NCBI RefSeq assembly: GCF_044324785.1
Contig: NZ_CP172127.1
Strand: one strand, 5' to 3'
DNA: 64,000 nt
Origin: Escherichia coli
GTDB taxonomy: Bacteria > Pseudomonadota > Gammaproteobacteria > Enterobacterales > Enterobacteriaceae
Shown piece by piece: positions 40,601-46,600 of this stretch (position 1 is its first letter; every line of letters starts with the position of its first letter). The position numbers are program-made.

Positions 40601-43600
40601 CCGGATGTGGTTTAAGGAGGAACAATGTCATACCCACTTTTTGACAAAGACGAGCACTGGCATAAGCCAGAGCAGGCGTTTCTCACCGATGACCACCGGG
40701 CCATTCTGCGCTTCGCCGTAGAGGCGCTAATGTCCGGTAAAGGAGCGGTGCTGGTGACGCTGGTGGAAATACGCGGCGGCGCGGCGCGCCCGCTCGGTGC
40801 GCAGATGGTGGTGCGCGAAGATGGTCGTTACTGCGGTTTTGTCTCTGGCGGCTGCGTGGAGGCCGCTGCCGCTTTTGAAGCGCTGGAGATGATGGGCTCA
40901 GGCCGCGATCGCGAAATTCGCTATGGCGAAGGTTCGCCGTGGTTTGACATCGTTCTGCCCTGCGGCGGTGGGATCACGCTGACGCTCCATAAACTACGCT
41001 CGGCACAGCCTCTGCTCGCCGTGCTGAACCGCCTGGAACAGAGAAAACCGTCGGGTCTGCGCTACGATCCGCAAGCTCAATCGCTGGTGTGCCTGCCCAC
41101 GCAAACCCGGACGGGCTGGAATCTCAATGGCTTTGAGGTGGGGTTCAGGCCATGCGTCAGGCTGATGATTTACGGACGTTCTCTTGAGGCGCAGGCAACC
41201 GCGAGTCTTGCAGCAGCCACAGGCTATGACAGCCATATCTTCGATCTTTTTCCGGCCTCAGCCAGCGCTCAGATCGATACCGATACGGCGGTCATTTTGC
41301 TGTGCCATGATCTCAACCGGGAGCTGCCAGTGTTGCAGGCCGCGCGAGAAGCAAAACCCTTTTATCTCGGCGCATTGGGCAGCTATCGAACCCACACTTT
41401 ACGTCTGCAAAAGCTCCACGAGCTGGGATGGTCCAGGGAGGAGACAGCGCAAATCCGGGCACCCGTCGGGATATTCCCCAAAGCCCGGGATGCGCATACT
41501 CTGGCACTCTCCGTGCTGGCAGAAGTCGCCTCTGTACGTCTCCATCAGGAGGAGGATTCATGCCTGCCCCCGTCGTCCTGATCCTTGCGGCCGGGCGTGG
41601 GAAGCGCTTTCTCGCCTCCGGGGGAAATACCCATAAATTAAGAGAAAAATCTGCAGTAGCCGTTTTAGAAAATCACCTAAATCGTTTAAAAGAGCGCCCA
41701 ACCCATAGTGGGCGCTTATCGCCTTGTGTAACTTATTCAGCAACGCGCGCCCTCGCCGGACTAAAGCGCACCGGCCTTCTGGCGTGCGGTAACAAAGGTC
41801 AGTACGCCAGCGCAAAGGAGCAGCACGCTACTCATAGCAAACGTGCTCTGCCAGCCAAGGCGGTCAAATACGATGCCTCCTGCTGTTGATCCAAGGGCGA
41901 TGGCGAGCTGAATCACCGCGACCATGAGCCCGCCTCCGGCTTCGGCGTTGTCAGGCAACGTACGCGCAATCCATGTCCACCATCCGGTTGGCGCGGCGGT
42001 GGCCAGCATGCCCCAGAGTCCTAACAGCAGCGAGACCGTCCAGACGTGATGCCCGGTAAGCATCAGACCGATAGCAATGACGGCCATCAGTCCGGGTATG
42101 GCCATCAGCGTGGGGTAGAATTTTCTGTTGAGAAATGCCGAAACAACCAGCGTGCCAATAAAACCGGCCACGCCGATAATCAGCAAAATCAACGACAAGC
42201 CTAAGGAATTAACCCGTGTCACCGACTCCAGAAACGGGCGCACATAGGTGAATAGCGCAAACTGCCCCATGAAAAACAGGCCACAAGCTATCATGCCGAC
42301 CACAACCATGCGGCGGCTAAATAAGCGGAATACCGCGCCAAGTGACGTGTGGCTTTTATTCGCATCCATACTGGGCAGGCTGATGCACTGCCAGATAAAG
42401 GCGACAACCGCGATGGGCACCAGGCACAAGAAAGCGCCTCGCCATCCGACCGTAGCCCCCAGATAGCTTCCCAGCGGTGCGGCCACGACCGTCGCCAGCG
42501 CATTACCGGCGTTGAAAATTGCCAGCGCACGCGTGACCTGATGCTGCGGCACCAGACGAATCGCCGTTGCCGCTGACATCGACCAGAATCCGCCAATAGC
42601 CACACCAATCATCGCACGACCGACCATATACATCAGATAACTGGAAGCCAGCGCAATAATAAGCCCCGATACGGCCATCAGAACCGTCATCCCCAGCAGC
42701 AGGAACTTACGATTCATCTTTCCAGCTAGCGTTGAAAGCGTCAGGCTGGTCAGAACCGCCAGCGCGCCGGAGATAGCAATCCCCTGCCCTGCCAGCCCCT
42801 CCGTCACGCCTAAATCGCGGGTAATCGGCGTGAGCAGGCTGACGGGCATAAATTCAGAAGCAATCAGCACAAACACGCACAGGGTCATGGCAAAAATACC
42901 GCCCCAGTATGCGTGCTGATGATGAGGTGATGGTGTTTGGCTTAGTGTCGACATAGTGAAATTTCACAAAGATCAGGATAAAAGCCACCTGCCATAGACC
43001 GGTGGCTTTGCATCAATTCAGGAGAGGTTTTATTTCAGTTTGGTCTGGAAAAATTGCTCGAACTTCGCGAAAGGTATTTTTCCGGCCACGTTATCGTACA
43101 GGTCCACGTGATTTGCCCCTGTTACCACCACCAACTCTTTGTCTTTACTGCCAACCGCCTTGTAAGCATCTTCAGCAAAATAGCGTGAATGTGCTTTCTC
43201 ACCGGTCACAATCAGCGTCGGAATGGTGATTTCACTGGCGTAGCTCAACAGCGGCATATTCATAAATGACAGCGGCATCGTTGCCGTCCACGCCCCGGTA
43301 GAGTTAACGGAACGTTCGTGGAAGCCGCGCGGCATGCGATAGTAGTCAAAGAACTCTTTCAGTACCGGATGAGGATTTGCCGGCAGCGTTTCTGGCAGAA
43401 TACGCTCGCCCGCACTGACCTTGCCGTTGCTGTCGACATTAATATCATGACCACCGTGAGCGAACGTTCCGCTCTGCGCATCCTTCCAGCGCTGTTCATT
43501 CAGATATTGCAGAACAGCACGACGGTCGGCGGTAGAATAACGGTCTTTGCCATCCCCCACACCATGGCCCATCGCCCGGCTCATGTCATACATCACGCTG

Positions 43601-46600
43601 GTAGCTACCGCTTTAACGCGGGTATCCATCGCCGCGTCGTTCAGCGCCATGCCGCCCCAGCCACAAATACCGAGCAGCCCGATACGGTTGCGATCTACCT
43701 CTTTTTGCAGCCCTAAGAAATCCACCGCCGCGCTGAAATCTTCAGTGTTGATATCCGGTGAGGCGACGTTTCGCGGATAGCCGCCACTTTCCCCGGTGTA
43801 AGAAGGATCGAACGCCAGGGTAACAAACCCTCGTTCCGCCAGCGTCTGCGCATACAAGCCGCTGGATTGCTCTTTCACCGCGCCAAATGGCCCACTGACC
43901 GCAATCGCCGCCAGCTTGCGATCGCCACGGTCTTTAGGCAGGTAAAGATCGCCCACTAAGGTGATGCCATATCGGTTCGGGAACGAGACTTTACGGTGAT
44001 CGACTTTCTGGCTCTCGGCGAACGTTTTATCCCATTTATCTGTCATGGACACAGGGGCATTAGGATTGGTTGAATCAGCATAACTCATTGTCGTGACTCC
44101 ACTTAATGATGCGAAAAGCAGCATGGTCGGCATCGCGGTTTTTAGCGTTCGGGTGAAGGCTTTCATAAAAATCCCCATAAAAAACAACAGAGAGATACAG
44201 GTTTCCGACGGACAACGCTGCGGTGCTTTACTTTGATGGGGTCATTATAGTGAGCAGAATTAGTGCTGATTAGGGGGCGATTAATGCTAAGATTAATACC
44301 ATATTGTTATAAATTAATGCGGAGATTGCCGGCATGAAGGAGGGATGTTTCAATGGCGAAAAGGGAGAACTATAACGAGCTGTACCTGTTTATGCAGGTG
44401 GTGCGAGAAGGCAGCTTTACCGCAGCGGCTCAGCGGCTGGGTCTTGCTCAGTCAGGAGTCAGCCGTTCTGTTCGCGAGCTTGAAGAAAGGCTGGGCGTCC
44501 AGCTGCTAGTGCGCACCACGCGTAAACTGTCGCTGACACAAGCAGGCGAGCAGCTCTACCAGAAGACGGCATCTGGATTTGAAATGTTAGATCTTGGGCT
44601 TGCCACGCTGGCGCACTATCGAGAGACGCCCTCCGGCACTGTGCGTATCAATGCCAGCCAGCACGCGATTGATAAATGCCTGCTGCCAAAGCTGGCGGTA
44701 TTTAAACAGCGATATCCTGATATCCGGCTTGAACTGATAAATGAGAGCCGGTTCGTCGATATCATCGAGGAAAGATTCGATGCAGGTGTCCGCCTGGGGC
44801 CTGAAGTCGGCCAGGGTATGGTCGCGGTACGCATCACGCCCGATATGGAGATGGCAATTGTGGGGACTCCGGAACATTTTCGTCGCTATGGTTTTCCGCA
44901 AACCCCGGCGGATTTAAAGGCGCATCCCTGTATCGCCTATCAGTTTGCCGACGGCAGCGTATACCAGTGGGAACTCAATCAGGATGATAAAAAAATCACT
45001 CATCGCCCTGAAGGGCAATGGGCCTTATCCGACAGCTATATGGAAGCAGAAGCAGCCCGGCTGGGCCTCGGATTGGCCTATGTTCCTGTTGAACTGGTCG
45101 CGGATGATTTAGAACACGGTAAGCTTATCAGGGTGTTGCAGCGTTACAGCCTGCGAATGGAGGGATTGTTTCTCTATTACCCTCATCGCAACGTCTCCCC
45201 CGCCCTGCGGATGGTCATTGATACATTGAAAATCTGAACGTTAACAACGACCGACTCTTCACTGTGCAAAATTGTGTCAGGTAGTCCCTCTGCGTTCAAT
45301 TCCAGGGTCTGTACACCCTGCTTTGAGCGAGAAAGAGGGGACTATCCAGCAATGGAGATCACCCAAAAGAAAAAACCACCAGGCTCCCTCGACAACCTTC
45401 ATCCGGGCATTTAGCCTCAATCAACATTTTTATATCTGTCAGGTTACTTCATTATGAAAACTGATCATCATCGTTGTTTTTGTTGCAATAGTAGAATACG
45501 CGTATTTATTCCTCCATCTCTATTAATAACGGCAATAAACTGTTCACTTCACTGATATTTAAAATATACATCCTTTTCAAGCTGTTCAGCGGCGTAAGAA
45601 AAAGTATTAATTATGAATTCGACGATTTAACCATTTCTGGCTGATTGGTAATCATCTGTGATTAATGCTGGTCTATTGATTACGCCAGCACCCTCTCTAG
45701 CTTATTCACCGCCGCCACATACTTCGCCGGATTTTTATCTTTCAGCACCGCCAGATTACGTTGCTTCCAGCGAATAGCCGGAAGATGCTGAATTTCAGGA
45801 TAGCGATACCGCGACCAGTCAGGGCTGTTTTGCTTAAAACTGAGCAAGAACTCGCGATCCAGATCCGTAAGATGTGACTTCAACGCCTGCGGCAGCAAAG
45901 TCGTTACTGACAGCAGCGATTCCAGCGACGTTTCCTGCTGAGTCATCCCCGAAAATTCCTGAGCATACAGCGTCGTGATCCGCTCTGTATCCCAGTTTGG
46001 GGCCAGCAACTCGGCAATGGGGCGGGGATGGCCTGCCAGATAACAAAGAAAACCGTCAAAGATCTCCCGCATCAGTCCCGGTTTCTCCAGCATATTCAGC
46101 ACATCAAACAGATCGCGCGGGTGCTGACGATCAAGCGCTGCGCAGATTTTACCGCCATAAAGATCCGCCAGCGAGACGACACTCATGGTGGTGAAGCCAT
46201 ACTCCATTTCCACACGTTCGCACACAGGCATTTCTGCCGGAGGCAACAACAGCCCGCGCCAGACCGGGCTAACCTCGATCTTAATCTTTGCATCAGCGGT
46301 ATTCACAATGATGCGCTTTTCATCCGCTTTATTTTCCTGCCGAATCGCGGTGATCCCCGGTCTGCCGTTCAGCGATGCAGTAATCCTCTTCAAAGCGTCG
46401 TTGATAGCCGCCAGATCAGTATCGCGATCCGCAAAGCTCTTATACGCCAGATCAATATCCACCGACAGACGGGGAAAATCCTGCACAAACAAATTGATTG
46501 CCGTGCCGCCTTTCAACGCGAAACAGGACTCCTTCGCCACATGCGGCAGAGCAGCCATCAACAGCTTAACCTGCCGGGCATAACTATCACGCAGATCCAT

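Follow-up and report, generated by a model that had tools for sequence, protein, structure and literature searches.

A probable OvrB-controlled module of a predicted exported cysteine hydrolase and an MFS transporter in Escherichia coli O-island 9

The 64,000-nucleotide stretch of Escherichia coli contig NZ_CP172127.1 (assembly GCF_044324785.1) analyzed here, hereafter the window, carries three intact genes between paoD and a defense island: a gene for a transporter of the major facilitator superfamily (MFS) (41761..42954, minus strand, 397 amino acids), an α/β hydrolase gene (43030..44166, minus strand, 378 amino acids), and a divergent LysR-type regulator gene (44353..45237, plus strand, 294 amino acids). 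The GC content of this module is unremarkable (0.49 to 0.57). Its products are 97.7%, 99.2%, and 98.0% identical to the O157 proteins z0348, z0347, and z0346 (OvrB), respectively, the last value holding over 297 residues; the genes flanking the LysR gene are the same as at the O157 z0346 (ovrB) locus, and the gene order agrees with the published description of z0342 to z0348. By sequence, this part of the window corresponds to E. coli O-island 9 (OI-9), namely, to its segment z0348-z0347-z0346 (ovrB). The first-pass annotation of this DNA had the gene content right, as well as the placement between paoD, which ends at 41581, and the island, whose AbiE pair and type I restriction-modification (RM) genes start at 45680; what it overlooked was the identity of the three genes with z0348, z0347, and z0346 (ovrB), the last a published activator of LEE1 of the locus of enterocyte effacement (LEE) (PMC6768210).

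The locus is already known: OI-9 has been described, and its regulator has been named and studied. In enterohemorrhagic E. coli (EHEC) O157:H7 EDL933, OI-9 is 6.1 kb long, absent from K-12, and comprises seven genes (Liu et al. 2019, Virulence 10:783, PMC6768210; 2021 review, PMC8565820), encoding a LysR regulator (z0342), an oxidoreductase (z0343), two hypothetical proteins (z0344 and z0345), the LysR regulator OvrB (z0346), a hydrolase (z0347), and an MFS protein (z0348) (PMC6768210, PMC8565820). OvrB binds the LEE1 promoter, as seen by electrophoretic mobility shift assay (EMSA) at 0.1 to 2 µM and, sixfold, by chromatin immunoprecipitation followed by quantitative PCR (ChIP-qPCR), activates ler, and promotes adherence and mouse colonization (PMC6768210), while a 2024 review describes its further roles as unclear. 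Compared with O157 OI-9, the window has orthologous genes in the same order beside paoD, but only the z0346-to-z0348 half of the island, O157 homology ending at 45690. When a 4-kb query around the module was compared with 5,426 complete E. coli genomes, matches were found in 3,626 and the whole stretch in 912. The closest relative of the window strain, N3, a rectal-swab isolate whose pathotype is not stated, has the same arrangement and is 99.6% identical over the 4-kb query.

The same genes travel together far beyond E. coli. We scanned the genomic context of the hydrolase family in one genome per species and searched the 80 returned loci with the LysR and MFS proteins of the window. A LysR gene (36 to 88% identity) adjoins the hydrolase gene in 21 of the 80 loci and an MFS gene (43 to 91% identity) in 17, and all three occur together in 14, distributed over Klebsiella, Kluyvera, Hafnia, Enterobacter, Dickeya, Psychrobacter, Vogesella, Luteimonas, Moellerella, Novosphingobium, Bosea, Brevundimonas, Paracoccus, and one Enterobacteriaceae metagenome-assembled genome (MAG). 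Two gene orders were found, LysR<>hydrolase-MFS and LysR<>MFS-hydrolase, and the genes flanking the module are unrelated from locus to locus. The P. aeruginosa genes PA2220-PA2219 (opdE)-PA2218 likewise bring the same three families together in one divergent unit, with identities of 41% for the LysR protein, 60% for the MFS protein (OpdE), and 58 to 63% for the hydrolase, whose GICGWGG elbow is identical. They differ in order, PA2220 <> opdE being followed by PA2218, so that the MFS gene precedes the hydrolase gene, and PA2218 (PDB 2HDW) is without a cap insert of about 20 residues found in the E. coli hydrolase. The divergent LysR/hydrolase/MFS set that had been read as a unit from one genome is therefore seen as such in these 14 loci and in P. 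aeruginosa. The annotation of opdE is only "membrane protein OpdE," and presumably the gene has an old link to OprD expression.

K-12 itself harbors a paralogous divergent pair, pgrR (ycjZ)-ycjY, with PgrR 41% and YcjY (PDB 5XB6) 34% identical to the module proteins; for PgrR, binding to the ycjY/ycjZ spacer and regulation of ycjY-ymjDC-mpaA are on record (PMC5934670). YcjY has Cys at its elbow too (GICAGAG), but it has no signal peptide, and its operon partner is mpaA, encoding a murein tripeptide amidase, rather than an MFS gene. Since synteny extends across Proteobacteria and includes both PA2220-opdE-PA2218 and pgrR-ycjY, gene context identifies LysR and hydrolase as an old co-inherited pair with MFS as a frequent third partner. 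In Kluyvera genomosp. 1 the whole module, spacer included, is almost identical to that of E. coli, which suggests a recent transfer.

Outside Proteobacteria, the recurrent neighbors of the hydrolase gene encode hexapeptide acetyltransferase, cyclophilin-like, cupin, short-chain dehydrogenase/reductase (SDR), aldo/keto reductase, flavodoxin-like, and carboxymuconolactone-decarboxylase-family proteins as well as AraC or LysR regulators. Judged by these gene contents, this is the make-up of small-molecule/electrophile detoxification clusters and not that of a defined catabolic pathway. No catechol or chlorocatechol ortho-cleavage gene was found beside the hydrolase gene in E. coli, Klebsiella, Dickeya, P. 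aeruginosa, or the 80 scanned loci. A cyclophilin-like (PF18050) gene adjoins the hydrolase gene in 16 loci, and in Dickeya (locus L005, 7234-7743) it stands between the hydrolase and MFS genes.

The hydrolase open reading frame (ORF) spans 43030 to 44187 on the minus strand, with a TTG at 44187 and an ATG at 44166. The ATG is the likely start because a GGGGA Shine-Dalgarno sequence lies 5 nt upstream of it and because the resulting 378 amino acids are typical of nearly all homologues; the Prokaryotic Genome Annotation Pipeline (PGAP)/RefSeq call in O157 and N3 has 352 amino acids and begins within the predicted signal peptide. This peptide, a predicted Sec signal of 30 residues cut after SYA (codons 44077..44166, minus strand), reads MKAFTRTLKTAMPTMLLFASLSGVTTMSYA with D following the cut, and shows three basic residues, a hydrophobic core, and S-Y-A ahead of the predicted cleavage. 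Residues 1 to 31 are disordered in the AlphaFold model, with a predicted local distance difference test (pLDDT) score of <50. The signal-peptide-like N-terminal pattern is conserved in other genera, in keeping with the earlier description of a signal-peptide-bearing enzyme, and one source calls a homologue a "conserved exported hypothetical protein." From these features we infer export of the hydrolase to the periplasm.

The AlphaFold model (pLDDT, 87) has the two hallmarks of an α/β-hydrolase fold, a nucleophile turn after β5 and a His after the last strand. The Cys reported at first pass in the nucleophile elbow GICGWGG is confirmed by exact translation (43651..43671, minus strand); it is Cys168 (codon 43663-43665, minus strand), placed between strand β5 (157 to 167) and a helix (169 to 180). 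His353 (codon 43108..43110, minus strand), in an NHVDLYD motif after the last core strand (343 to 348), would be the catalytic base, and Glu323 (codon 43198..43200, minus strand), in GEKAHS after strand β7, would be the catalytic acid, a position taken from α/β-hydrolase topology. In an alignment of 32 diverse representatives of the family, the Cys168 column holds Cys in 26, Ser in 1, and Gly in 5, and four of the five Gly variants have lost the catalytic His too. His353 is present in 28 of 32 and absent only where Cys168 is also absent, every Cys-bearing member having it; position 323 is Glu or Asp in 28 of 32. K98, E99, and Q100 (VKEQ, after β3) are invariant (32/32), and R280 and H283 of the cap are each found in 30/32. 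The E. coli enzyme contains all family motifs, namely, VKEQ, the G-[ILV]-C-[GA]-x-G elbow, YYxxPRGxHxR in the cap, and HxDLYD. Its elbow position after β5, together with the joint loss of Cys and His, makes Cys168 the likely nucleophile, and α/β-hydrolase topology points to a Cys168-His353-Glu323 triad.

Full-length sequence and structure matches assign the hydrolase to the PA2218/YcjY family, an uncharacterized family with solved structures (2HDW and 5XB6). PA2218 is described as biochemically uncharacterized (PMC3790968), and the literature on PA2218, 2HDW, 5XB6, and YcjY yielded no biochemical function. Foldseek against the PDB gave 1,788 matches at an E value of ≤0.001 among 2,000 candidates aligned, and the top 50 matches listed are all α/β hydrolases; beyond the family itself, the closest structural relatives are thioesterases and feruloyl/PET-type esterases. 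Pfam matches are marginal (PETase, 37 bits; Hydrolase_4, 28 bits; DLH, 21 bits). The NCBIfam equivalogs UilS, BHET hydrolase, FrsA, NepI, and YafC all score far under their cutoffs, the best for the hydrolase being the UilS acyl-homoserine lactonase (NF047920; 67.8 bits against a cutoff of 400; E value, 1e-18), whose match is limited to residues 80 to 235, and one further family model reached 15.2 bits against a cutoff of 477. Thus, domain search and structure prediction lead to an uncharacterized family and to no well-characterized one, and, as had been stated at the outset, a substrate is not assignable: among Pfam and NCBIfam models, none for which a substrate is known was matched at its cutoff.

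The first-pass annotation had also called the enzyme a dienelactone-hydrolase type, which holds for the Cys nucleophile but not for the family. Dienelactone hydrolases (ClcD type, PF01738) share the α/β fold, the Cys nucleophile, and the His base. However, the DLH profile scores 21.0 bits at a cutoff of 21 with no individually significant stretch, aligning only 50 residues (146 to 195, to profile positions 76 to 125 of 217), and DLH structures are not the nearest neighbors, ranking 11th or lower among the structural matches. The E. coli enzyme is separate by sequence and structure, has a large helical cap with YYxxPRGxHxR, and is predicted to be exported, without an aromatic-degradation context. 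Identity is about 20% to the fungal polyketide-release α/β hydrolases DcsB (7D78) and GrgF (6LZH) and to feruloyl/PET46-type esterases, all of which we take to be Ser enzymes.

The family is large, with 465 clusters at an E value of ≤1e-30 in a 50%-identity library, and identity to the E. coli hydrolase is 51 to 64% in Bacteroidota, Campylobacterota, Melainabacteria, Firmicutes, and Elusimicrobia. For an uncharacterized enzyme it is unusually conserved, exceeding 50% identity in at least six phyla and appearing in many gut samples. The PA2218 branch shows >80% identity across proteobacterial classes; some of these matches are MAGs, for which contamination is possible. A Gly-for-Cys sub-branch (P0153, P0156, and P0241, each of about 480 amino acids, plus P0177 and P0164), most members of which are also without the catalytic His and three of which are longer by some 150 residues at the C terminus, probably consists of noncatalytic derivatives. 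Another aligned member, P0139, has Trp at many positions where the family has Gly (ICWFGW, TWESAWEP, and WPFWAVKEQSSW), a pattern expected if a genome with UGA=Gly (genetic code 25) was translated with UGA=Trp.

The regulator encoded on the other side of the spacer has the two domains (Pfam HTH_1, E value 1.4e-23; LysR_substrate, E value 4.7e-35) and the length of about 300 amino acids of a LysR-type protein. We aligned the LysR-hydrolase spacers of 11 genera. The putative hydrolase promoter has a −10 hexamer, TATAAT (44244..44249, minus strand), with TA-AAT invariant in the 11 genera, and, 17 nt upstream of it, TAATCA (44267-44272), that is, a perfect −10 and a weak −35 (3 of 6). A promoter consensus scan demanding ≥4/6 in the −35 returned no spacer site, the −35 being too poor. 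TAATCA belongs to an invariant block, CTAATCAGCAC (44263..44273, minus strand; CTAATCA-CA, 44273-44264), followed by an AGCA-N7-TGCT dyad, and CTAATCA over the weak −35 is probably the activation-site contact of the LysR protein. A further conserved block, ATTTATAACAATATGGTATTAATCTTAGCA (44285..44314, minus strand), emerged from invariant alignment columns and a dyad scan as the candidate LysR recognition site. It contains an ATA-N9-TAT dyad of the T-N11-A type (44296-44310), centered ~63 nt upstream of the predicted start site near 44237, and ATT-ATAACA (44314-44305) and AT-AAT (44297-44292) within it are invariant in the 11 genera.

This block is the probable recognition site. Its layout, with the dyad close to −65 and another site close to −35 as counted from the predicted start, is that expected of LysR-type regulators, and a position-weight matrix of the block reaches 51 bits at home and ≤9.3 elsewhere in the window. 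The K-12 pgrR-ycjY spacer has the same layout (TAATCA-N17-TATAGT) plus two TCTAATCA copies. On the plus strand, the putative LysR promoter, whose start site is predicted near 44320, has an extended −10, TGtTATAAA (44305..44313), that overlaps the conserved box, the complementary ATTTATAACA being invariant; with its own extended −10 inside the upstream site, OvrB probably autoregulates. The site proposed at first pass, three ATTAAT hexamers (44280-85, 44292-97, and 44313-18), did not survive as such. All three are present, and no other such cluster in 39 bp exists in the window. In Markov-1 simulations of the spacer, the P value is 0.0006 for this hexamer but ~0.2 when a threefold occurrence of whatever hexamer is counted; taken by itself, the triple is therefore weak evidence. 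Conservation of the outer two is limited to E. coli and Kluyvera; since only the middle copy, that of the invariant AT-AAT, is conserved across the 11 genera, the triple was rejected as a binding site. Downstream of the promoter, a 36-nt block in the hydrolase 5′ leader (44194-44229, minus strand; AAAGCACCGCAGCGTTGTCCGTCGGAAACCTGTATC) is well conserved in Enterobacteriaceae, but this does not extend to Dickeya or Aeromonas. Rfam gave no match for it, and its consensus fold (−2.9 kcal/mol) has no compensatory pairs; it could be a second operator.

The MFS protein (Pfam MFS_1, E value 8e-38) has about 12 hydrophobic segments. Its best NCBIfam matches, NepI, a sugar transporter/efflux-type model, and Cmx/CmrA, are all exporters and all below cutoff; with 292 bits against a cutoff of 584 for the NepI equivalog model, the protein is classified by profile score as a NepI relative and not NepI. 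Because its three best matches are efflux proteins, export is its most likely direction of transport. The hydrolase and MFS genes, described at first pass as an operon, are on the same strand with a gap of 75 nt, but the gap contains a terminator-like hairpin (42977..43014, minus strand; then UUUUAUCC), so that simple co-transcription is not assured. This hairpin folds at −21.9 kcal/mol (z score, −3.0), was equaled in 1 of 200 shuffles, and is followed by UUUUAU. GC-rich hairpins of different sequence occupy the same gap position in Klebsiella, Hafnia, Enterobacter cloacae, and Psychrobacter. The hairpin in the gap is a possible partial terminator, attenuator, or 3′-end stabilizer. The interval between the hairpin and the MFS ATG is too short for a promoter; hence, the MFS gene is probably read by partial read-through, most transcripts probably ending after the hydrolase gene. 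Another terminator-like hairpin may follow the MFS gene (41680..41716, minus strand; AGCGCCCA-N8-TGGGCGCT then CUUUUAAA). It appears in the centroid fold; the whole-region z score is not significant, and the hairpin is absent from the consensus scan list.

Taken as a whole, these observations are best explained by an OvrB-controlled small-molecule module of OI-9 made up of an exported Cys hydrolase and an MFS transporter, an explanation that we hold to be reasonably probable. The module is most likely a ligand-controlled unit for small-molecule processing or detoxification, and z0347 and z0348, not virulence genes, would be the original targets of OvrB. In the mechanism envisaged, OvrB would bind the site ~63 nt upstream of the hydrolase transcription start and a second site over the weak −35 (TAATCA-17 nt-TATAAT), control hydrolase transcription in response to a small-molecule co-inducer, and probably regulate its own gene. 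The hydrolase, carried by its 30-residue Sec signal, would work in the periplasm, where Cys168 with His353 and probably Glu323 may form a thioester acyl-enzyme on a small-molecule ester, lactone, thioester, or amide. The OpdE/NepI-like 12-helix MFS protein would move the substrate or product over the inner membrane, most likely outward, so that a toxic compound might be pumped out and then destroyed in the periplasm. The hairpin would end most transcripts after the hydrolase gene, leaving the transporter to be made at a lower level by read-through, and this local sensor would have acquired its activation of LEE1/ler in EHEC recently, as a secondary output. A scheme of pumping out and destroying is favored on account of the exporter-like MFS relatives and the detoxification-type neighbors of the hydrolase family.

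Several points weigh against this explanation. Control of z0347/z0348 lies outside the experiments of the OvrB papers, and deletion of z0347 or z0348 leaves adherence and LEE expression unchanged (PMC6768210). The paralogue PgrR is annotated as a repressor, so activation by OvrB is not assured. When the conserved promoter boxes were scanned for in the Sakai LEE1 upstream region, no convincing site of either block was found, the best score of the box matrix being 5.7 bits against 51 at home; LEE1 is accordingly taken as a secondary target, and the same result weakens the assignment of the box to OvrB, since either OvrB binds LEE1 in a different way or its site is something other than this box. 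Conservation of the upstream box may also partly reflect just the −10 of the LysR promoter. In five loci, enterobacterial or from Aeromonas, the LysR-hydrolase pair stands without an MFS gene, and the direction of MFS transport is not readable from sequence. For the enzyme, the signal peptide was recognized by simple rules on charge, hydrophobic core, and small-x-small layout, the triad was read from fold topology, and 4 of the 32 representatives have no Glu or Asp at position 323, which makes the catalytic acid uncertain.

The main rival retains the periplasmic hydrolase and reverses the transporter: the product of hydrolysis outside would be imported by the MFS protein and act as the co-inducer of OvrB, closing a positive loop of salvage. 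The idea has a certain logic, as a cytoplasmic LysR protein requires a cytoplasmic ligand that an importer beside a periplasmic hydrolase would supply, and the conserved hydrolase-MFS pairing is compatible with either direction of transport. However, the nearest named MFS relatives are all exporters, and Enterobacterales have no linked catabolic genes for the product, which leaves import and salvage possible but rather doubtful. It is unlikely that OvrB is simply a horizontally acquired virulence regulator with z0347 and z0348 as unrelated passengers outside its control. LEE1 is indeed its sole demonstrated target (EMSA, ChIP-qPCR, and mouse colonization; PMC6768210), and both the unaltered phenotype of the z0347/z0348 deletions and the missing local box at LEE1 would fit; yet the LysR-hydrolase(-MFS) arrangement occurs in many genera without LEE and has the pgrR-ycjY pair as its paralogue in K-12, the shared spacer has invariant boxes, 912 of 5,426 complete E. 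coli genomes carry the unit, and N3, the closest relative of the window strain, is a rectal-swab isolate of unstated pathotype.

Other rivals concern the substrate. By analogy with PgrR-YcjY-MpaA, the periplasmic hydrolase might act on cell-wall peptides in peptidoglycan turnover, with the MFS protein moving the fragments. Identities of 34% to YcjY and 41% to PgrR and the shared promoter layout are consistent with this, as is the listing of YcjY under "(putative) peptidoglycan degradation" (PMC12711010), but the activity of YcjY was never demonstrated, YcjY has no signal peptide, the locus has no mpaA, ycjG, or mppA neighbor, and the neighbors in other phyla are of redox/detoxification type, making such a role quite improbable. 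We consider a quorum-quenching lactonase, hydrolyzing acyl-homoserine lactones or similar signals from neighboring gut bacteria, scarcely likely as well: a periplasmic enzyme would suit an external signal, and the best NCBIfam match is to the family of UilS, itself an α/β hydrolase with a dienelactone hydrolase annotation (PMC11633161), yet that match stays far below its cutoff and covers the N-terminal half only, and the nearest structures beyond the family are thioesterases and feruloyl/PET-type esterases. A canonical dienelactone hydrolase of a (chloro)catechol ortho-cleavage pathway would account for the Cys nucleophile and for a Pfam DLH match exactly at the gathering score. That match spans just 50 residues, however, with DLH structures ranking no higher than 11th, and there are no dioxygenase, cycloisomerase, or maleylacetate reductase genes nearby. 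The chlorocatechol/dienelactone pathway is cytoplasmic, while this enzyme is predicted to be exported; family, context, and location together exclude the classical pathway and render this reading extremely improbable.

In the published view, OvrB is a horizontally acquired virulence activator whose two neighbors are unexplained, and the gain here is a reading of the locus. New are the proposal of z0347/z0348 as cognate OvrB targets, the mapped conserved boxes, the link to PA2220-opdE-PA2218 and pgrR-ycjY, and the intergenic hairpin. A bolder version, in which OvrB is the cognate sensor of the z0347/z0348 unit and its co-inducer is the compound handled by both proteins, is speculative and in our judgment somewhat unlikely. 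If it were true, LEE expression and colonization in EHEC and enteropathogenic E. coli (EPEC) would be tuned, via OvrB, by an ester, lactone, or xenobiotic from the gut, and the PA2218/YcjY Cys-hydrolase family, with its >50% identity across phyla and many gut taxa, would gain a defined substrate class. The ligand of OvrB may have an effect on LEE expression as well. A further outcome is the recognition of a large and strongly conserved family of predicted exported Cys-nucleophile α/β hydrolases with two crystal structures and no substrate assigned.

In K-12, a gap extends from just past paoD to the middle of the second OI-9 LysR gene, into yagP. The latter (L002, 5133-5471) is 98% identical to the C terminus of the second OI-9 LysR protein (z0342 type; L001, 11704-12603), and its alternative origin as a remnant of the window LysR gene, to which identity is 29%, was ruled out. 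By this comparison, what survives as the K-12 pseudogene yagP is the 3′ end of a z0342-type LysR gene, and the K-12 state is accordingly one deletion that runs from just past paoD into z0342.

On the other side, the first genes of the neighboring island are an AbiEii toxin/AbiEi antitoxin pair (45680-47390), followed by a type I RM system (47632-53493) with ORFs of 1,039, 490, and 372 amino acids. No tRNA genes were found between 45000 and 64000 of the window, and an Rfam scan of 41500-45700 at an E value of ≤1 gave no match. In N3, the AbiE/type I RM block stops at an integrase remnant adjoining tRNA-Thr. Just 3′ of the LysR gene, a 117-nt segment (~45458-45574) is 90% identical to the ykgR region at ~26155-26271; RefSeq labels this copy in O157 and N3 as an N-terminally truncated ykgR pseudogene, and a duplication and a recombination scar at the island edge are both conceivable origins.

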